NCBI GenBank assembly: GCA_001792535.1
Contig: MGGS01000016.1
Coordinates: 160-64,159 of the forward strand
DNA length: 64,000 nucleotides
Direction: 5' to 3'
DNA from: Candidatus Woesebacteria bacterium RIFCSPHIGHO2_02_FULL_42_20
Lineage (GTDB): Bacteria; Patescibacteriota; Microgenomatia; UBA8517
Shown here: positions 2,798-57,144 of the stretch, piece by piece
How positions within the stretch are numbered: position 1 is the stretch's first letter
How the letters are laid out: each line of letters starts with the position of its first letter
Translations under genes and position numbers: made by a program
Notes under the pieces: generated by a model
What the model was told of the DNA's origin: nothing
Seen by the model: only the letters and a program-made list of their open reading frames with translations
Databases searched by the model: none

Positions 2798-3520
2798 TCA
2801 ACTATAAACTTTTTGGGTATCAAATATTAGCTGCTCCAGATGATCAAACATATCTTCATTAATCCCGTATTTTACCTTTTCATCTTCACTTATTGTCATG
2901 TTGAACCCAACCCTCAGAGATCTTAAATTATCAATAATATCTCGATGTAATAGTCTATTTAACAGGACGCCAATTCTATCTTTATCCACACTTTGCATTC
3001 TGCCTTTTCTAAAAGAATCGAGTATGTGGGTTAATTCATTGATATTTAGTTCAACTTCCGCCCAGGATGCCAGCGTCTGCAGTAAGTATGTCTCGCCCTC
3101 AGTTAATTTTATGGGCTTTGTGTCTTTGATACAAAAAACGCCTACTTTCTTGCCATCAATAGAATGTATAGGCACTCCTGCATAAAAGCGGATATACGGG
3201 GGACCCGCTACCATTGGATTGTCGGCAAAACGATTATCTTTTTTAGTATCGTCAATGACAAGAATGTCATTGGTTAATATTGCATGGCCGCAAAACGATA
3301 TCATTCTATCCCTCTCTCTTTCTGATACTCCATGGCAGGACTTATACCACTCGCGATTTGAATCAACTAAGGTAATTGTTGAAATCGATACCTTGAACAT
3401 TCGTAGCGCTGTCAAAGTAATGCGATCAAAGCGGGCTTCCAGTGGGGTATCCAGAATTTTCAATCCTTGTAAAGAGGCTAATCGCTGTATCTCGTCGTCA
3501 GCTATAGCAGACGACTGCAT
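2798..3520 (-). CDS. GAF domain-containing protein
   Basis: N-terminal GAF-like region (LQTLASWAEVEL, FCIKDTKP, YAGVPI), 240 aa. Confidence 0.6.
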   Translation of the reverse strand: MQSSAIADDEIQRLASLQGLKILDTPLEARFDRITLTALRMFKVSISTITLVDSNREWYKSCHGVSERERDRMISFCGHAILTNDILVIDDTKKDNRFADNPMVAGPPYIRFYAGVPIHSIDGKKVGVFCIKDTKPIKLTEGETYLLQTLASWAEVELNINELTHILDSFRKGRMQSVDKDRIGVLLNRLLHRDIIDNLRSLRVGFNMTISEDEKVKYGINEDMFDHLEQLIFDTQKVYS

Positions 3521-3680
3521 ATAGTGTAGTTCTTAATAGTATCATTTAGAATTCACTCGCACAATAACCGGATCAATCACTCAAGTTGATTAAACTTGTG
3601 CAGCGCCAGTTAATTTCAGTAGTATTGCATTCAGTAGACGTACAAATTCCTAAGAAAGCAACCAGGTATAGACCGGGTGA

Positions 3681-3700
3681 TATTAATTTGAAGACAAATT
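3681..3700. repeat. Array repeat copy 3 (TATTAATTTGAAGACAAATT)
   Basis: Read directly; ends 2 nt before stop codon of BrnA-like ORF. Confidence 0.9.
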
Positions 3701-3702
3701 GT

Positions 3703-4014
3703 TTAGATAGTTATCGAAGTTTTACCCTCGGCATACTTGTGAATTAGTACATTTAAAAGCCTTTGGTAAGGGATATTAACTCTTTTTGCCTTTGCTTTAA
3801 CTTTAATAATATCCTCATTTTTCACTCTCAATGTTATTCTTTTCGTCTTTTGTAATTCCAAAAAGTTTTTCGCAGATTCTTCAAGCTCTTTTTTCCTTTT
3901 TTCAAAGTTTTTAATAGATACAAATTCACCCTTTTCTAGGAATTCCTCTAGCTCCATTTCGTAATCATCTAGGGGAAATTCATCAAAATAATCTTTCTTC
4001 TGTTTTTTATTCAT
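3703..4014 (-). CDS. brnA: BrnA-like antitoxin (CopG/RHH type)
   Basis: C-terminal ITLRVKNEDIIKVKAKAKRVNIPYQRLLNVLIHKYAEG typical of BrnA; overlaps upstream toxin ORF by 4 nt (ATGA). Confidence 0.65.
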   Translation of the reverse strand: MNKKQKKDYFDEFPLDDYEMELEEFLEKGEFVSIKNFEKRKKELEESAKNFLELQKTKRITLRVKNEDIIKVKAKAKRVNIPYQRLLNVLIHKYAEGKTSITI

Positions 4015-4292
4015 ATTTTTAAATACTTCTTCTTCAAATTTCTATTCGGATAAATCGTTTTTAAAAATCTAACTTTTCTTACTTTATCAATTACATATGG
4101 CACAGCATATACTTTATTTTTTATACTTACTATCAAGATCCTCTGATTGGGATATCTCCTCTTGTTAAAGTGATCAATATCATCCAGAACTTTCCCGCTT
4201 TCAATCGCTTCAATAATTTCTTCAAAACCGACTCCCCTTGTTGCTTTTATTATTAAGTTTTTCTCTTCAGGGTAATCAAATTTATACTTCAT
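4011..4292 (-). CDS. brnT: BrnT-like ribonuclease toxin (DUF497)
   Basis: KFDYPEEKNLIIKATRGVGFEEIIEA resembles BrnT N-terminus (FEWDxxKNxxNxxKHGxSFEEA); toxin-first order as in BrnTA. Confidence 0.65.
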   Translation of the reverse strand: MKYKFDYPEEKNLIIKATRGVGFEEIIEAIESGKVLDDIDHFNKRRYPNQRILIVSIKNKVYAVPYVIDKVRKVRFLKTIYPNRNLKKKYLKI

Positions 4293-4384
4293 ATACTAAT
4301 AGTTCGTACATCCGTTGTCAAGACATTATTAATTGTAATTGCTCTTCAAATACCCGCTTAACAATTCTATCACTTTCTATCGAA

Positions 4385-4403
4385 GCTAACTTGAAGACAA
4401 ATC
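4385..4403. repeat. Array repeat copy 4 (GCTAACTTGAAGACAAATC)
   Basis: Read directly. Confidence 0.9.
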
Positions 4404-4449
4404 TACCCTTGTAACTCATTTACACTTCCGGCTGCCGGTAATAGAGGTA

Positions 4450-4898
4450 TTACATCCTTTCTGCAAATTCCCGTCCCTTGAGCAAACCATTCTTTGCCAA
4501 TATTGCTCGCACATCTTTCTTTAACATCTCTTTCTTTTCATCTTTAGATAGTCTTGTTAAACCAACAGGAATTTCTACTCCGTTTGTTTCCACATTCTTA
4601 AATTCACTAGATATCCGTAACATCTCTGGTCTTCTTTTCAGTCCTTTTCTTTCCAGTCTTCTTGCCTTGAGTAAAAACATTCTAAACTGCATCCTGTTTC
4701 AGCAATTCTAAATCTGAAAACATCAGGGTCCCAAGGTAAAGATAAAGCAGATAAACCGGCTCTACTTTCTCTAATGTCAAATCTATCCCACCTTATTTCC
4801 TCAACGGATAATCCCAATCTTTGAGAAATGAACTGTTTAGCATCATCCAGAGACGGCGCATCTTTATTAGCTTCACTTTCTAAAACACCTTCTGTCAT
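4450..4898 (-). pseudogene. small hypothetical gene apparently frameshifted (two overlapping ORFs, 86 aa + 80 aa, different frames)
   Basis: ORFs 4638..4898 and 4450..4692 overlap by 55 nt in different frames; no recognisable family. Confidence 0.3.
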
Positions 4899-4931
4899 AT
4901 TTATATTACTGTTAATTCATTCTATTTCTAA

Positions 4932-4950
4932 GCTAATTTCGAGACAAATT
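4932..4950. repeat. Array repeat copy 5 (GCTAATTTCGAGACAAATT)
   Basis: Read directly; overlaps stop codon of VapC ORF. Confidence 0.9.
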
Positions 4951-5319
4951 ATTAAGCAGTTTCTTGTCAAATGATGCTATCTTGCCTTTGTTTACTTCGG
5001 CCCACGAAAGTAGATAACTGTCAACAAAATGTAAGTTTCTTCTGTAAAAATCCCACAAAGAAAGCAGGACTTCTCTTTCTTCGACTCTTAACCACTTCTG
5101 AGAAAGAAAGGTTTCCATCGACTCCGCTATATCTTCCCTATTATTTTTATAAAATGATTCGAGGACAAAGACAACTTCACTTATGACGAGCGCTTTTATT
5201 ATCAGTTTTGACTTTCCTTTTTGCACGTTTTCAAATAACTTTCTGGCATTTTGGTATTGAGATTCAATGTCTCCTACCAAATATCTTAGGATTACATTGG
5301 TGTCAACTATTTGCTCCAT
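4933..5319 (-). CDS. vapC: PIN-domain toxin VapC
   Basis: IVDTNVILRYL N-terminal PIN acidic motif, 128 aa, overlaps upstream antitoxin ORF. Confidence 0.75.
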   Translation of the reverse strand: MEQIVDTNVILRYLVGDIESQYQNARKLFENVQKGKSKLIIKALVISEVVFVLESFYKNNREDIAESMETFLSQKWLRVEEREVLLSLWDFYRRNLHFVDSYLLSWAEVNKGKIASFDKKLLNNLSRN

Positions 5320-5564
5320 TGTTTCACTAAGCTTTTACCAAATTCTTTCCTTGCTTTTCTTAAATCCGAATCGGAAAGTTTTATCCCTGTATTTAAAGAT
5401 CCTCCAAGTGACCAAAAATCCTTTTTTAACTCCACCTCTAATTTATCAGCCTTCTTTCTAATAACAGCCTTGACCGGCCCGTTTACCCCTAGTGAGCGAA
5501 GCATTATTTGCGGGACAGTCAATTGGCCTTGACTGGTAATCGAAACTACTTTTTGCATTTCCAT
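5307..5564 (-). CDS. vapB: AbrB/SpoVT-family antitoxin (VapB-like)
   Basis: VVSITSQGQLTVPQIMLRSLG swapped-hairpin beta-barrel motif; start placed at internal Met (MEMQK...), ORF track extends to 5594. Confidence 0.6.
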   Translation of the reverse strand: MEMQKVVSITSQGQLTVPQIMLRSLGVNGPVKAVIRKKADKLEVELKKDFWSLGGSLNTGIKLSDSDLRKARKEFGKSLVKQWSK

Positions 5565-5770
5565 TATCATACTGAGATAATAATGTAATGTCAATTGTTA
5601 TTGTTTCATTACTACAACCAAATCTTACAATAAATAGCCTACCGAAAATGCGGTCAAAAATGTTAAATATCATTCTCCAGTTATCCAGATGCAATATTTG
5701 AATATCAACTTTTGATTAACAGCTTGTTTACAAAACCCACATTCAGATTCTACCACGATTTCTAAGCAAG

Positions 5771-5788
5771 GCTAATTTGAAGACATTT
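5771..5788. repeat. Array repeat copy 6 (GCTAATTTGAAGACATTT, right arm degenerate)
   Basis: Read directly; copy nearest the recombinase gene. Confidence 0.85.
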
Positions 5789-5861
5789 TTCTAGTTTCGT
5801 TTTTGCAGATTTTTGGAAATTTACAGTAGATAAACAGTCCAACTTTGAGTAACATTTAGTC

Positions 5862-7431
5862 ATGGAACCGGAGGACACCGACAAATCGGTTTTACAGGAA
5901 CAATCGCGGACAATATTTTACGATCTTAGACAGAACTTAATAAAACTGCGTTCGCAAGACCAATCAGGTGAAAATACAGAAAGTCTAGCTGCAAAAGTTG
6001 CAGAGTTAATGACAAGGTTATACGACTACCACCTATCTTTGTATCAACTTTCCGGAAAATCATTTAATTCTGCAGGTCCATTTTGGAATGGCTAATCAAT
6101 ACTCACGAAATTTGAGTAAAAATGTAAAGCGTGGGAATCAATACAGATTCCATAACAAATAGCAGTGGCTTGGACCCGCAAAGATTGGGTGGCTTAACGT
6201 TACTAACCCCGATACACAGGAGAAGGGAATAGTTGTTGACCCAGATAGATTTCCTCTGATTGTTAAGGGGATTCGGCTCATTATCACCGGCGCACACACT
6301 CCAATGCAGGTTTTGCACAAGCTTAATAACGAATGGGGCTTCAGGACCAGGATAACAAGGCGTCAGGGAGGTAAGCCACTAAGTAAGAGTGCTTGGTATA
6401 AACTATTAGCAGATCCCTATCTTTACGGACTAATGATCCGCAGCGAAGGGGAGGAAATAGGAAACCATAAACCTGTGCTTAGTAAGGACGATTTTGATAA
6501 ACTACAAATTATGTTAGGGCGTAAGGGGAAACCGCGGGTAGCAAAACACGAATTTGCCTATAAAAAAGAGGTGCTTAAATGTGGGGAATGCGGCGGGTCG
6601 GTGACAGCCGAAGAACACTGGCAGATTATTTGCCCGGAGTGTAGAACAAAGTTCAATAAGGCCAAGACAGCCGATAGGTGCAAGGGGTGCGAGCTTCTGA
6701 TTGAGGAGATGAAAAATCCAAAGATTCTCCACTATGTTCACTATCATTGCACAAAACGTATCAACCCAAAATGTGCACAACGCAGTATTCCGCTACATAA
6801 ACTTGAAAAACAGATTGACGAGGAACTTTCAAAGTTTGAAATAAAAGAGGAATTTAAGGACTGGGCAATCCAGTATTTGAACGAGTTAAACGATAATGAG
6901 GTTAAAGAACACTATGTAAGCCGAAATAATACCGGAGAAGCCCTCAAGGATACTATAAAGAGGCTGGATAGCCTTACCAAACTCTTTATATCGCCACAAA
7001 ACTCCGAAAGAGAGCTGATGACGGAGGAAGAATACTCCTCACAGCGCAAACCCCCTCTTGAAGAAAAGGAGAGCTTGGCATGATTAGCAAAGGAAATAGA
7101 CCAACAACAGGATAACTGGCATGATCTAATAGTAAATACCTTCAACTTTGCGTGTTATGCGCGTTACTGGTTTGCTAAGGGTGATTTAAAGGAGAAAACC
7201 GAGATACTCGGCGCACTTGGTTCGAACCTTACAATAACAGACAAAAAACTGTGTGTTGACGGTCTAAATCCATTTTTGATCATCGCGGACGAAAGGAGTA
7301 AAGTAGAAGAATTGTCCAAAATGTTCGAACCTGCAATAAAGCCTGATTTGTCGCACCGAAGTGCCCCTCTCAAAGAGCTTTGTCAATCTTGGCTGGCCGT
7401 TTACAAAAAATGTCGAACTTCATTTGATTAG
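5862..7431 (+). pseudogene. large serine recombinase, decayed (frameshift near 6013-6095, in-frame TAG at 6160-6162 and TGA at 7081-7083)
   Basis: Frame-1 translation 6163..7431 gives recombinase-domain-like GWLNV..., zinc beta-ribbon CGECGGSV...CPEC and coiled-coil tail; upstream fragment ...ANQYSRNLSKNVKRG resembles end of resolvase catalytic domain; 115 stop-free codons continue past the TGA. Confidence 0.65.
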
Positions 7432-7552
7432 CTCGCCTCGCCCCGCTCGGCTCGCAATGTGAGCGCGGCGTACATGTAACTTCGTTACAGTATAAACCCC
7501 TTTACCCTGAAAAACTCCTCAGAGTTTTTTACGGGCACCCGCCGTGCCTCCG
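7388..7552. repeat. Left arm of perfect 165-bp inverted repeat
   Basis: 7388..7552 is the exact reverse complement of 8776..8940 (checked base by base); contains hairpin AAAAACTCCTCAGAGTTTTTT at 7510..7530. Confidence 0.95.
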
Positions 7553-7575
7553 TTATTTTTTGCGCGCGCGATTTT

Positions 7576-7608
7576 CTCGCCCTTCGGGCGAGGAGAGTTT
7601 TGTTATTT
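7576..7608 (+). terminator. Rho-independent terminator-like hairpin (CTCGCCC-TTC-GGGCGAG followed by T-rich run)
   Basis: 7-bp GC-rich stem, 3-nt loop, then GAGTTTTGTTATTTT; just inside left IR at 3' end of ORF 7608..8417. Confidence 0.4.
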
Positions 7609-8417
7609 TAATCCTGGATTAATTGGAAGTCACTACAGTGCTTTTTAGAATCAGATGACAGGGTACTGAGATTTTGTGGTAGGGAGGTAATATATTTTTT
7701 TATGGCTTCTGGTAAATTTTTAGTGGAAGAAACTATTTCGTTGAAACGTTCTTGAGACCAACCGTAATAGAAACACGACTCTAGATTCCAAGTGTTAGCG
7801 CCACTAGCCAAACTCAATAATTTACCAATACCCTCACCACTACCGGCACCGTAAGTATCTACCACCATAACGTATAACTTTCCGTTTTGATAATCCATTA
7901 GGTAAGGATTATTACTCGATCCAGAAAGATCTTTGATGTGTGTAAATATTTTCCAAATACTGTCGTTTTTATTTGCATACAAAATACCGGAAATATCTCC
8001 TGATCGGACTATGTTCATATTCCCTTTTTGAAAGATTGCATATTCAACACCATTAAAAGTATATGTTTTATCAACTTGATCAGGCATTATTGAGGTGGGA
8101 ACATTCCTATTTAAAACCAGAGGTCTGACGTTAGTTACCACAAAATGTCCTATCTTGTCCCCTTTGCTATATCCTGATTTATTTACATAGCCTGCAATAA
8201 TTGTCTCTTTACCTATTTGGCTTTCCAACTCAGGCCATACATTGTTTTTGCTAGGTTTAATAATCAGTTTAAAATTTTGAGGCGTATCTTCAAAACTAAG
8301 CGTGCTCAAAGTAGACTTCGTTAATTTAAATTCGTAGTCATCGTCGATAAATGGATTTGTCCTTTTGTTTACCTGAAGAGGGCTTAGTTTGTAAAGTTCG
8401 TATATACCAGGCTTCAC
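7608..8417 (-). CDS. hypothetical protein (269 aa), sole ORF inside the IR-bounded module
   Basis: GTG start preceded by in-frame TAA; no recognisable catalytic motif (not an obvious DDE/serine/tyrosine recombinase). Confidence 0.5.
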   Translation of the reverse strand: MKPGIYELYKLSPLQVNKRTNPFIDDDYEFKLTKSTLSTLSFEDTPQNFKLIIKPSKNNVWPELESQIGKETIIAGYVNKSGYSKGDKIGHFVVTNVRPLVLNRNVPTSIMPDQVDKTYTFNGVEYAIFQKGNMNIVRSGDISGILYANKNDSIWKIFTHIKDLSGSSNNPYLMDYQNGKLYVMVVDTYGAGSGEGIGKLLSLASGANTWNLESCFYYGWSQERFNEIVSSTKNLPEAIKKYITSLPQNLSTLSSDSKKHCSDFQLIQD

Positions 8418-8775
8418 TTATCACAGCAACCACTAAAAGGATTACCAGAAATATCCAGTAATTAATTTTGATACTCTTTACACTTTTTGGGGCCATATTC
8501 GCAATGTCCATTTCCATATGTAATCTAAGTATAACAAATTTAAGACATGATCATTTTCGTGAATGTCTTGTTGCTTTTGTATTACAAGTTTTGGTATATT
8601 TTAGTTGGACTCAACTTTTACCAATTGCTATTTTTAATGGCGCATTTGGACAATCTGAGCAATCGGGTTGAGTCCACCGGATGCGCCATTTGAGATTTAT
8701 AAAAGTTCTTTAAAATTTTTGCGTTTTTTCTAGACAAAATCAGAAATGATTTTGTCTTATACGAGCCGACAGTTT

Positions 8776-8940
8776 CGGAGGCACGGCGGGTGCCCGTAAA
8801 AAACTCTGAGGAGTTTTTCAGGGTAAAGGGGTTTATACTGTAACGAAGTTACATGTACGCCGCGCTCACATTGCGAGCCGAGCGGGGCGAGGCGAGCTAA
8901 TCAAATGAAGTTCGACATTTTTTGTAAACGGCCAGCCAAG
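8776..8940. repeat. Right arm of perfect 165-bp inverted repeat
   Basis: Exact reverse complement of 7388..7552; includes last 13 codons of ORF 8901..9212. Confidence 0.95.
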
Positions 8941-9212
8941 GATTCGAACGTATTTGTCGAAACCTGCTGTATACCTGAAACTTCAGAACTCGGAGTCGGA
9001 GTAGCAGAAATATCTTTTTGGTGCTCATAAACCGCCACGCCCACAGCTGTCGTCCCTGCCACAACTGTGCCGGCAAGCAAAATTTTGCCGAGTAACGTTC
9101 CGAATATAGCGGATATAAATTGGCCGACTTGTATTGTATCGGCGCTCAGGCCCAAAAACTCCCGTAGTTTAGACGTCTTTTTCTTCTCCTCCATTTCAAA
9201 GTGAGTATACAC
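8901..9212 (-). CDS. hypothetical small membrane-associated protein (103 aa)
   Basis: Hydrophobic stretch AIFGTLLGKILLAGTVVAGTTAVGVAV; C-terminus encoded inside right IR. Confidence 0.4.
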   Translation of the reverse strand: MYTHFEMEEKKKTSKLREFLGLSADTIQVGQFISAIFGTLLGKILLAGTVVAGTTAVGVAVYEHQKDISATPTPSSEVSGIQQVSTNTFESLAGRLQKMSNFI

Positions 9213-9321
9213 CTGGAGACTAAAAAATTTCTATGTTATCCTGTTGCAAACCAAATCTTTCTTTAAATTTCCGGCGCTATTTTGCACAACTTAAATATCT
9301 TGATTGTTGTAAAATTCAAGA

Positions 9322-10500
9322 ATGAAACGAAACATAAAAATTACCTACTTACTAAGCTATCTTAAACACTCATGGTTTTGGATCGGCATTTGGGTTTTTT
9401 ATTATTTGCGATTCACCGACTACGCAGGTATAGGCCTAATTGAAACCGTCATGATTGGCACAATGTCTTTATCAGAAATACCCACAGGTGCCATCGGAGA
9501 TTTATTTGGTAAAAGAGTTACCCTTTTTATAGGCTTTTTCATGGAATCCGCGGGAAATTTTATAATGGCTTTTGCGCCCAATTTTAATGTTTTGGTCCTG
9601 TCTGTTATTATAATGTCTTTTGGCGGATCAATGTACTCGGGTACGTCAGAGGCACTTGCTTACGACTCGCTAAAACAAATCGGCAAAGAACGAAATTACA
9701 ATAAAGTCACAGCAAACTCACAATCTTTTCAATGGATTGCCGTTACACTTACAGGAATAATAGGAGGGCTTTTATACAAAATTAACCCTTCGTACCCGTT
9801 TATAGCTTCGGGAATTTTCTTTTTTATTGGAGCGCTATTATGCCTTTTAATACACGAGCCCAGAATTGATACCGAAAAATTTTCTATTAGAAATTTCATA
9901 AATCAAAACAAGATCGGACTTAGAAGCTTATTTATAAATAGCGAAGTGAAACGGCTAACACTTTTTCTCGCGGCGATAGGAGCAATAATAGTTCTTTCTT
10001 GGGAAATGCTTGATGGTATATTAGGGATGGAGTTCGGCTATGATCCGCTAGGTCTTTCCGTTTTGTCGGCAGTTTTGTTTTTAGCAGCGGCTGGGGCATC
10101 ACAATTGACTGCGTTTTTACATGAAAGGTTCGGGGCATCAAAAGCAATAATATTTCTCGCAATAATAACAATTGTTACTTTTTTAGTGTCACCTATTGCC
10201 GGCCTTATTATCGGAGGACTAAGTTTAATTCTTCGGTCAGCAGTACAAACGATAATAGTGAACTTAACTTCCGTTGTGATAAATGAGAACGTAGAATCAA
10301 AATATCGAGCTACAGCGCTTTCATCTTTTAATATGTTTAAAAACCTGCCTTACGTTCTGTCGGCCTATCTTCTTGGCAGCTTGATGGATACAATAACTGC
10401 CAGAAATTTTGCCTTTGTTTTAGGGGTATTGCTCGGAACACTACTTCTAATTAATAGTATTAGAACTAAAAATACCAGTAAACGTTATGCTAAAATGTAG
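9322..10500 (+). CDS. MFS transporter
   Basis: ~12 predicted TM segments; MFS-like G-x-x-x-D-x-x-G-K-R motif (GAIGDLFGKR). Confidence 0.75.
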   Translation: MKRNIKITYLLSYLKHSWFWIGIWVFYYLRFTDYAGIGLIETVMIGTMSLSEIPTGAIGDLFGKRVTLFIGFFMESAGNFIMAFAPNFNVLVLSVIIMSFGGSMYSGTSEALAYDSLKQIGKERNYNKVTANSQSFQWIAVTLTGIIGGLLYKINPSYPFIASGIFFFIGALLCLLIHEPRIDTEKFSIRNFINQNKIGLRSLFINSEVKRLTLFLAAIGAIIVLSWEMLDGILGMEFGYDPLGLSVLSAVLFLAAAGASQLTAFLHERFGASKAIIFLAIITIVTFLVSPIAGLIIGGLSLILRSAVQTIIVNLTSVVINENVESKYRATALSSFNMFKNLPYVLSAYLLGSLMDTITARNFAFVLGVLLGTLLLINSIRTKNTSKRYAKM

Positions 10501-56981: not shown

Positions 56982-57069
56982 TGGTGCTGGGACCAGGATT
57001 CGAACCTAGGTAGGCCTTTCGGCCGCGAGATTTACAGTCTCGTGCGATTGTCCACTCCGCCATCCCAGC
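56982..57069 (-). tRNA. tRNA-Tyr (GTA), long variable arm, CCA encoded
   Basis: Hand-folded cloverleaf: acceptor GCTGGGA/TCCCAGC, anticodon stem CGAGA/TCTCG loop CTGTAAA, variable-arm hairpin GGCC-GAAA-GGCC, T-loop TTCGAAT. Confidence 0.85.
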
Positions 57070-57070
57070 C

Positions 57071-57144
57071 TGGAGCCTTCCCAGAGAATCGAACTCTGAT
57101 CGACGGTTTACAAAACCGCTGCTCTGCCACTGAGCTAGGAAGGC
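57071..57144 (-). tRNA. tRNA-Thr (TGT), CCA encoded
   Basis: Acceptor GCCTTCC/GGAAGGC, anticodon stem GCGGT/ACCGT loop TTTGTAA, T-loop TTCGATT. Confidence 0.85.

Follow-up and report, generated by a model that had tools for sequence, protein, structure and literature searches.

Serine integrases such as those of phiC31, Bxb1, A118 (LI integrase) and TP901-1 have a resolvase domain followed by a recombinase domain, a zinc ribbon and a coiled coil, and their genes lie at the end of the integrated element beside an attachment site. The intact members of the large serine recombinase (LSR) family considered here, LSR1, share this domain order and this position. A relic of an LSR1 gene (6058–7395, plus strand) is located in a stretch of 64,000 nucleotides, in the following called the window, from Candidatus Woesebacteria bacterium RIFCSPHIGHO2_02_FULL_42_20 (contig MGGS01000016.1). 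In contrast to the known integrases, the window copy is without a catalytic domain and is interrupted by two stop codons. We conclude that it is very probably the 3′ two-thirds of an LSR-type integrase gene of an element which inserts at the 3′ ends of tRNA-Gln genes, now joined to an inverted-repeat cassette which has no recombinase. Two properties of the family itself also depart from the known systems: the attachment core (attP) of LSR1 is situated within the last codons of the gene, so that integration rewrites the C-terminal tail, and the probable crossover is a palindromic GC, whereas the studied integrases use asymmetric dinucleotides which fix polarity.

Other described systems resemble the locus in part. 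Most known integrative elements which target tRNA genes use tyrosine integrases. Such elements and prophage remnants likewise choose the 3′ end of a tRNA, carry defence cargo, leave integrase pseudogenes on decay and restore the tRNA end, here with a CCA originating from the …TTG of the gene end. However, a serine integrase is used here, and the identity segment has only about 6–7 nt instead of being a long copy of the tRNA 3′ part. The SCCmec (staphylococcal cassette chromosome mec) and psi-SCC islands of staphylococci depend on the Ccr large serine recombinases and insert at the 3′ end of rlmH, and the CIMEs are cis-mobilisable. There, too, several elements occupy one site, repeats bear the core, and some elements have no recombinase and need a supply in trans; the present locus differs in host phylum, target (tRNA-Gln), recombinase families, its near-perfect inverted arms of 95–165 bp and a second, inverted copy of a recombinase 3′ end. 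In the G segment of Mu (Gin) and the C segment of P1 (Cin), crossover sites are placed at the outer ends of long inverted repeats. A recombinase gene just outside an inverted-repeat segment, a core at the outer repeat ends and the occurrence of both orientations among genomes are common to these segments and the present case, but here the enzymes are large serine integrases and not small invertases, the cargo is variable, the orientations occur at about 80:20, and the recombinase in the window is dead.

The identity of the relic was assessed by three-frame translation of 5700–7500 and by database searches. One long frame extends from about 6058 to 7431, broken by a TAG (6160–6162) and a TGA (7081–7083). 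A search of 5.8 billion proteins returned 1101 homologs of the relic (best E-value 1e-229, top identity 77%), the best of which are 560–600 aa long, 70–77% identical and cover 95–100% of the fragment. Residues 1–199 of the fragment align to positions 214–415 of the 651 positions of PHROG 95, “integrase” (E-value 8.9e-26). Pfam yielded a single sub-threshold zinc-ribbon match (Zn_ribbon_recom, PF13408; E-value 0.0014, 19.4 bits at a cut-off of 25.3 bits), the PF07508 model did not reach an E-value of 1 on the fragment, and no significant match was found in NCBIfam or by PDB sequence search. Consequently, the family was assigned by PHROGs, homologs and fold. Intact homologs carry PF00239 at the N-terminus, some of them together with PF07508 and PF13408, and have the catalytic motif Y-x-R-K-S-S-E.

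The relic corresponds, in one frame, to codons 120–564 of a gene of about 580 codons and extends from the last part of helix E through recombinase domain, zinc ribbon and coiled coil into the C-terminal region. The zinc-ribbon region (6580–6774, plus strand) has CxxC motifs at 6580/6589, 6631/6640 and 6679/6688 and further cysteines at 6748 and 6772; in an alignment of 49 sequences, C140, C143, C157, C160, C173, C176 and C204 are invariant and C196 is nearly so. In an AlphaFold model of 6163–7080 (predicted local distance difference test score, pLDDT, of 87), the recombinase domain is helical, strands of a beta-ribbon are present, and two long helices (229–276 and 288–305, pLDDT 80–94) form the coiled-coil motif, a region cut by the TGA at 7081. 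The 12 best PDB matches of the model are all serine-integrase structures (among them 9dxd, 9dxh, 9y66, 4kis, 6dnw and 9iu2; E-values 4e-7 to 9e-4), and it also aligns with the C-terminal domains of LI integrase and Bxb1; the structure of the phiC31 N-terminal and recombinase domains (4bqq) matches weakly (rank 13, E-value 0.075). Thus, the recombinase-like frame with recombinase domain, CxxC zinc ribbon and coiled coil, which an earlier note on this DNA had read from the letters, is confirmed by PHROG 95, the homologs, the conserved cysteines and the fold. The scan with hidden Markov models (HMMs) and the comparison with intact homologs proposed there supported the recombinase domain and the zinc ribbon, and did not find a resolvase catalytic domain. 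A recombinase domain, a zinc beta-ribbon and a coiled coil are therefore present as in serine integrases, but the catalytic domain and an uninterrupted frame are not. Since PF00239 is absent, the window copy is a gene fragment rather than a recombinase.

Using tblastn, residues of about 120–564 of six intact LSRs were mapped to 6058–7395 in a single frame, with matches starting between 6052 and 6070. Residues 1–119 had no match in any frame of the window, and an HMM of the N-terminus (135 residues, built from 113 homologs) reached at best an E-value of 0.8 in the six-frame translation of the window. The sequence in front of the relic belongs to another gene. An open reading frame (ORF) of 77 codons (5862–6095) uses a frame other than that of the relic, reads into the LSR sequence without matching its frame and terminates at 6095. 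Its residues 3–69 are 41% identical to residues 4–68 of P0155, a protein of 231 aa with no assigned function (E-value 7e-4 library-wide, 8e-14 pairwise); it has no Pfam or PHROG match. We therefore regard 5862–6068 (plus strand) as the N-terminal part, about 69 codons long, of a gene from an unrelated family with products of about 231 aa. A truncated gene normally located upstream of LSR1 was also considered for this ORF and rejected, as no similarity to the genes preceding intact LSR1 was detected. Homology to the 231-aa family stops at residue 69 (nt 6068), and LSR homology starts at codon 119–120 or so. Since two gene fragments of the same orientation meet at about 6055–6068 (plus strand), this segment is interpreted as a deletion joint. 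Judged by these homology boundaries, the main lesion is shown to be a 5′ deletion in which the catalytic domain was lost completely (about 119 codons) and what is left of the recombinase gene became fused to a fragment of an unrelated gene. The frame change near 6013–6095 inside a recombinase gene, as assumed in the earlier note, is not upheld: LSR homology begins at about 6058 in one frame, and 5862–6095 is a different gene. No other part of an LSR1 element was found in the window by tblastx with five element bodies.

Both stop codons in the recombinase frame are real; over 20 assemblies of the Woesebacteria population have them. At the TAG, homologs have K, R or Q, and a single substitution in AAG or CAG would produce it; at the TGA, homologs have R, with one G, and CGA, AGA or GGA are one substitution away. 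The 259-aa ORF between the stops (6304–7083) is identical on 26 contigs from NCBI (metagenome-assembled genomes of Candidatus Woesebacteria from the Rifle aquifer), JGI, ENA and Logan. Ten assemblies are 99.8–100% identical across the region, and both stops are present in all assemblies examined. As the same sequence recurs across assemblies, the stops are not errors of a single assembly. The TGA is followed by 115 stop-free codons (7084–7428), for which base composition gives a chance of 6e-4 to 1.4e-3, in agreement with the previously estimated 1e-3; these codons are homologous to the LSR C-terminus as far as 7395. ORFs of at least 200 codons in the window end with TAA (20), TGA (12) and TAG (12), and uninterrupted ORFs of this size span 72% of the window under genetic code 11. 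Recoding is consequently unlikely, as had been supposed. Because the catalytic domain is missing and two genuine stops are present, the pseudogene verdict is solid.

To estimate the age of the inactivation, closely related intact genes are available. The 90% cluster of the fragment includes the intact P0124, P0127 and P0130 (loci L006–L008), which have 84–85% DNA identity to the window; for a relative of 575 aa the value is 85%. Pairwise ratios of nonsynonymous to synonymous rates (dN/dS) are 0.088 for the window versus L006, 0.080 for the window versus L007 and 0.047 for L006 versus L007. Assigned to lineages, the window has 47 synonymous and 29 nonsynonymous changes plus 2 stops (dN/dS 0.145), compared to 44 and 8 for L006 (0.044) and 67 and 13 for L007 (0.047); the difference between the window lineage and the pooled intact lineages is significant (Fisher’s test, p = 6e-4). 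The nonsynonymous excess is greatest after the TGA, where 13 codons changed nonsynonymously and 12 synonymously. However, none of 35 columns which are at least 95% conserved among 113 homologs is altered in the relic. If dN/dS was 0.046 before and 1 after inactivation, about a tenth of the window branch would have been neutral, which is an arithmetic estimate. According to these substitution patterns, constraint is relaxed and inactivation is recent. The term “decayed” is thus justified by the truncation and the two nonsense codons, but not for the rest of the sequence, which is well preserved.

The attachment site becomes apparent from the intact LSR1 genes. In L002–L005 and L007, intact LSR1 is the last gene of an integrative element of 8–12 kb. 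Besides small ORFs, the elements have a gene with HTH_17, similar to excisionases, and one with HTH_3; their cargo consists of type I restriction-modification, of Dcm and Vsr, or of AbiTii and an OLD-like ATPase. All intact LSR1 genes end with …TTCGTCAATCTTGGCTG, and the 3′ end, of the form …CAATCTTG|GC|TG, adjoins an antisense tRNA-Gln. An identical …CAATCTTGGCTG precedes the antisense tRNA-Gln in L002, L003, L005, L007 and L008, and the 13-mer TTCGTCAATCTTG at the gene end is invariant in 7 intact genes. ARAGORN predicted a tRNA-Gln (UUG, CUG) on the opposite strand, overlapping the gene end and starting at the TGG of the core, in L002 and L007; the contigs of L003, L005 and L008 end within the same antisense tRNA, which is therefore partial. 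TGGCTG is the reverse complement of C71-A72-G73-C74-C75-A76 of tRNA-Gln. Among 115 family members, the C-terminal tails after a conserved (S/T)WL are mostly translated antisense tRNA (…RDSNP…SYH, or a short RD*), which places the attachment core within the last codons of the gene. Seven members have another tail, (D/E)x(I/V)RTxF, which is the likelier candidate for the far arm of the LSR1 element itself. The LSR1 family thus integrates at the 3′ end of tRNA-Gln, and more distant members at related tRNAs. In L005, CTTGGCTGCG occurs a second time at 3158, where it separates the AbiTii gene from the OLD-like gene at a distance of 8.5 kb upstream from the end of the recombinase; this LSR1 element may have its left attachment junction there.

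In the window, the last LSR-homologous sequence is the core TTGGCTG (7389–7395, plus strand), which reads as the reverse complement of C-A-G-C-C-A, the tRNA-Gln 3′ end, with an additional A. The 13-mer of the relic has one change, TTTGTCAATCTTG instead of TTCGTCAATCTTG, and the core is followed by a repeat arm instead of a tRNA. This left arm (7388–7552, plus strand) and the right arm (8776–8940, minus strand) form a perfect inverted repeat of 165 bp (100% identity) with 1223 bp between the arms and no further copy in the window. The inner end of the left arm is of type “A”, and a hairpin resembling a terminator and a T-run come after it; the right arm has an inner end of type “B” and the same core at its outer end, with GC at 8935–8936. 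The earlier statement that the 3′ end of the gene runs into the left inverted repeat is correct: the last 36 nt of the ORF lie within the arm, which provides the last 12 codons and the stop (AVYKKCRTSFD*). The “adjacent array” mentioned along with it can only mean the inverted-repeat segment, as Tandem Repeats Finder detected no array near the relic. No RNA family was found by Rfam in 5000–10000 (E-value up to 1), and since ARAGORN did not call a tRNA either, the repeat represents neither a known RNA nor what remains of a tRNA. The segment between the arms (7553–8775, minus strand) contains a cargo ORF of 269 aa (7608–8417) with no Pfam or PHROG match. A 59-codon ORF with a transmembrane helix (8338–8517, minus strand) overlaps the start of the cargo ORF in another frame; the cargo possibly encodes a secreted or membrane-anchored protein whose frame has shifted. 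In L069 (GCA_001792415.1), an assembly from the population of the window, about 390 extra bases, including a duplication of 95 nt, occur inside the cassette compared to window positions 8364–8458; they could be genuine variation or have arisen in scaffolding. Beyond the right arm, the flank (8941–9212, minus strand) begins with CAAGG and holds a membrane-anchored ORF of 97/103 aa reading into the arm. The right junction, …CA|GC|CAAGG, resembles a tRNA 3′ end followed by CCA-A, and the sequence after the right-arm core is CAAGGATTCG…; by this resemblance, the right flank could be the former downstream flank of a tRNA-Gln.

The same junction of LSR1, core and arm was found at three other places. 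The intact P0124 (L006) has it with the tail GVYEKCRTSMC, compared to AVYKKCRTSFD in the window, and P0015, 53% identical to the window protein, has it with the tail AVYKKCRTSFD. In L066, a 16-nt stub of the LSR1 gene end stands beside the arm; this was the one true match of a metagenome scan for the junction, next to three chance matches. The repeat arm was considered as LSR1’s own far arm, which is unlikely according to the tail analysis and because arms were absent within 3–10 kb upstream in six LSR1 loci. By eye, no symmetry was seen among the half-sites of LSR1 end, LSR2 end (see below) and arm.

The arms belong to a family which extends far beyond the window. The exact 24-nt arm pattern GTTTACRAAAAATGTCGAACTTCA occurs in 54 loci of the species-level genome collection, 9 of which have two inverted copies 1.2–3.4 kb apart. 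By record title, the hosts are Woese-, Levy-, Roizman-, Gottesman-, Collier-, Ames-, Curtiss-, Shapiro-, Chisholm- and Spechtbacteria, further WWE3, “Saccharibacteria” and several bins labelled Gammaproteobacteria. The 63 arms of the 54 loci have an outer end (T)GGCTGGCS-GTTTAC…, i.e., (T)GGCTGGCS and then GTTTACRAAAAATGTCGAACTTCA, GC-rich hairpin modules, and inner ends of type A (CTATTTTTTGCGCGCG, terminator-like) or type B (AAACTGTCGGCTCGAAC). Arms are about 95–165 bp long and the cargo comprises 1–3.4 kb; the ORFs between the arms vary among genomes, and the arms of one locus have private variants in common (L010, L033, L050). The window arms fit the 63-arm consensus, with A left and B right.

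A second recombinase family, LSR2 (about 505–518 aa, 28% identical to the window LSR), or fragments of it are present in 29 of the 54 loci, 12 times in full length, with 87–91% identity across phyla, and 17 times as fragments only. A tRNA-Gln lies within 8 kb in 18 of the 54; the window contains neither LSR2 nor a tRNA-Gln. Full-length LSR2 (starting with MIKYIAYCRKSTDEPDRQILSIEAQ) was noted in L010, L016, L021, L023, L029, L032, L037, L047–L050 and L056 (e.g., L048, 3016–4572), always between tRNA-Gln and the inverted-repeat cassette. The high identity across many candidate phyla of the candidate phyla radiation (CPR) suggests a very recent horizontal spread of an element of 3–5 kb. The LSR2 3′ end, …GAAAGCGCTACCTCCC…TCTTTAC|TGGCTG, adjoins the antisense tRNA-Gln, and an inverted copy of it, 105–137 nt long and 91–99% identical, adjoins the cassette arm, which makes “recombinase 3′ end + core + arm” a rule of the family. 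In the window, the LSR1 relic stands where this LSR2 copy sits elsewhere, with 1338 nt of LSR1 in place of about 130 nt of LSR2. The flank GAAAGCGCTACC…TTTAC was considered as an LSR2 promoter or 5′ untranslated region and rejected, since it is the LSR2 3′ end, present twice and inverted. The LSR2 gene is bracketed by inverted copies of its 3′ end and core in L010 (5388–5524 / 7018–7154), L021 (4205–4309 / 6329–6433), L029 (2237–2366 / 3835–3964) and L049 (5339–5443 / 6940–7044), from which it follows that the element has two inverted attP-like sites. In L033 (Woesebacteria), a 202-nt inverted repeat of different sequence (3943–4144 / 6650–6851, 99%) encloses the cassette and adjoins a tRNA-Gln(CUG), and LSR2 is reduced to an N-terminal piece of 52 codons. 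C-terminal stubs or frameshifted pieces of LSR2 stand beside tRNA-Gln and arm in L057 (2059–2352), L019 (70–190) and L038 (2150–3200). The decay of a recombinase beside a surviving cassette is thus recurrent and not peculiar to the window. Scans of viral contigs for the recombinase, the arm and the predicted palindromic circle junction GTAAACSGCCAGCTGGCSGTTTAC gave zero matches, and a narrow literature search found no description of such elements.

Among 65 repeat arms, the conservation of those joined to flanks without a recombinase starts at GCTGG, and the two preceding bases vary. The crossover dinucleotide is therefore probably GC (G73-C74 of the tRNA; 7392–7393 in the window), and the element would supply the CA which completes CCA. 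For the phiBT1 integrase, a palindromic GC dinucleotide led to anti-parallel recombination with products such as P′OP′ and POP (PMC3836970). Counted by eye, as an automatic classifier under-called flanks of the LSR2 type, about 17 arms on the LSR2 side have B as inner end and 4 have A (L037, L040, L044, L055), and of the arms on the other side about 22 have A and 5 have B (L030, L043, L057, L060 and the window). Both cassette orientations accordingly exist among genomes as read from the arms, and they are not at equilibrium (about 80:20). In the window population, 7553–8775 is flipped relative to the right flank in one of about 24 scaffolds (L078, identical to L083); the arm is longer than the reads, and a mis-join is possible.

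In summary, a deletion took the promoter-proximal 119 or so codons with the catalytic serine domain and fused the rest to the first 69 or so codons of the unrelated gene, and the two nonsense mutations, each of a single base, followed or accompanied it. The remnant is unable to cut DNA, and nothing else of its element is left in the window. Formation of the junction and movement of the cassette are inferred from these comparisons. Elements which use the same GC crossover at tRNA-Gln may accrete or exchange arms there, and the window would represent such a hybrid junction after most of the LSR1 element was deleted. Tandem accretion, arm exchange between co-resident elements, the element’s own attP and homologous recombination through the arms are candidate origins of the junction. 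The cassette, having no recombinase, could move or flip only by an enzyme acting in trans or by homologous recombination between its arms. The suggestion of the earlier note that the adjacent segment between the repeats is a fossil or is mobilised in trans, with the relic as its marker, is plausible. More tentatively, the repeat may represent an undescribed class of small CPR mobile units of 3–5 kb at the 3′ end of tRNA-Gln. Such a unit would consist of LSR2 and a cargo cassette between two attP-like sites, inverted and almost identical, each composed of a recombinase 3′ end, a palindromic GC crossover and an arm of 95–165 bp; it would flip or exchange its cargo, and LSR1 and LSR2 would swap arms at the shared core, leaving relics behind. 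With sites in inverted orientation and a crossover lacking polarity, a flip or an exchange of the cargo (natural cassette exchange) would become possible.

Other explanations of the relic were weighed. The gene could be complete but frameshifted, with the catalytic domain encoded in the other frame at 5862–6095, an ORF which does overlap the start of the recombinase frame. However, this ORF is homologous to the N-terminus of the 231-aa family, residues 1–119 are unmatched in every frame, and only 196 nt separate its ATG from the LSR homology whereas about 357 nt are needed, which makes a mere frameshift extremely improbable. Equally improbable is a readthrough or recoding of the stops which would yield a long, although truncated, protein. 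TGA is read as Gly in some CPR lineages, the close homolog P0002 has Gly at the TGA position, and 115 and 306 stop-free codons flank the stops. On the other hand, TGA and TAG terminate long conserved ORFs in the window, most of which is covered under code 11, Woesebacteria are not known to recode stops, and the catalytic domain would be missing even with read-through.

The remnant might also have been kept for a purpose, the 259-aa ORF as a protein which merely binds DNA at attachment sites, or the 3′ end as a half-site in cis beside the cassette. The low dN/dS and the unchanged conserved columns would suit such a use, as would the identity of the fragment across many samples, the inverted recombinase 3′-end copy regularly kept by the arm in LSR2 elements and the stub surviving by the arm in L066. 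But the recombinase domain is separated from the coiled coil by two stops, no Shine-Dalgarno-like sequence precedes the ATG at 6304, identity across samples is expected within one population, and dN/dS rose three-fold, most of all in the last segment, i.e., the would-be half-site, which moreover has a change in the otherwise invariant 13-mer. A retained function is thus quite unlikely. Somewhat less so, yet still not probable, is that the junction represents the attP of an LSR1 element with the repeat as far arm, i.e., a closed attP with an inverted duplicate rather than a hybrid. The intact P0124 in L006 has the same junction and the near-identical P0130 in L008 adjoins tRNA-Gln, a pattern of excised versus integrated states, and the arm acts as the far arm of attP in LSR2 elements. 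Against this, the LSR1 members which do not adjoin a tRNA share the different (D/E)x(I/V)RTxF tail as the likelier native far arm, the LSR1 lineages with the repeat-type tail are only 53% identical to each other although their arm is almost identical, and the six LSR1 loci have no arms upstream.

Several points weigh against our reading of the relic as a dead integrase gene in a hybrid junction. A dN/dS of 0.145 is far under 1 and suits not only recent inactivation but residual constraint too. Integration into a tRNA is not shown at this place, as ARAGORN found no tRNA-Gln in the 64-kb window and a second LSR1 attachment junction was likewise absent from it. The arm has no obvious similarity to the tRNA half-site or to the other LSR1 far arm, which leaves the enzyme behind the junction ambiguous. 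The GC crossover was derived by sequence comparison and not by measurement, and the sole flipped copy (L078) could be a mis-resolved repeat, since the 165-bp arm exceeds the reads and k-mers used.

As to the surroundings, a run of small toxin-antitoxin-like genes is located directly to the left of the relic (2798–5594); one of them (4933–5319, minus strand) encodes a PIN domain and is overlapped by its upstream partner, and another, further left, is CopG-like. GC content is 34–35% in this run and 42% in 6001–8000. At 56982–57144, ARAGORN made three overlapping tRNA calls on both strands (Tyr minus, Val plus, Thr minus), at least one of which is probably spurious.

The pseudogene itself is routine, as integrases of mobile elements decay everywhere. 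Nevertheless, the relic made it possible to define, by sequence only, where a large, previously uncharacterised serine-integrase family of Microgenomates has its attachment core, namely at the tRNA-Gln 3′ end, with the crossover probably at G73-C74. Since integration rewrites the last codons, the C-terminal tails can reveal the integration state of hundreds of homologs; the core helps to annotate mobile elements of the CPR and offers new pairs of integrase and att site. The relic further led to a conserved inverted-repeat cassette system of the CPR which is widespread and apparently undescribed. If our interpretation is true, this system would be a natural case in which serine integrases recombine without polarity and exchange cassettes.

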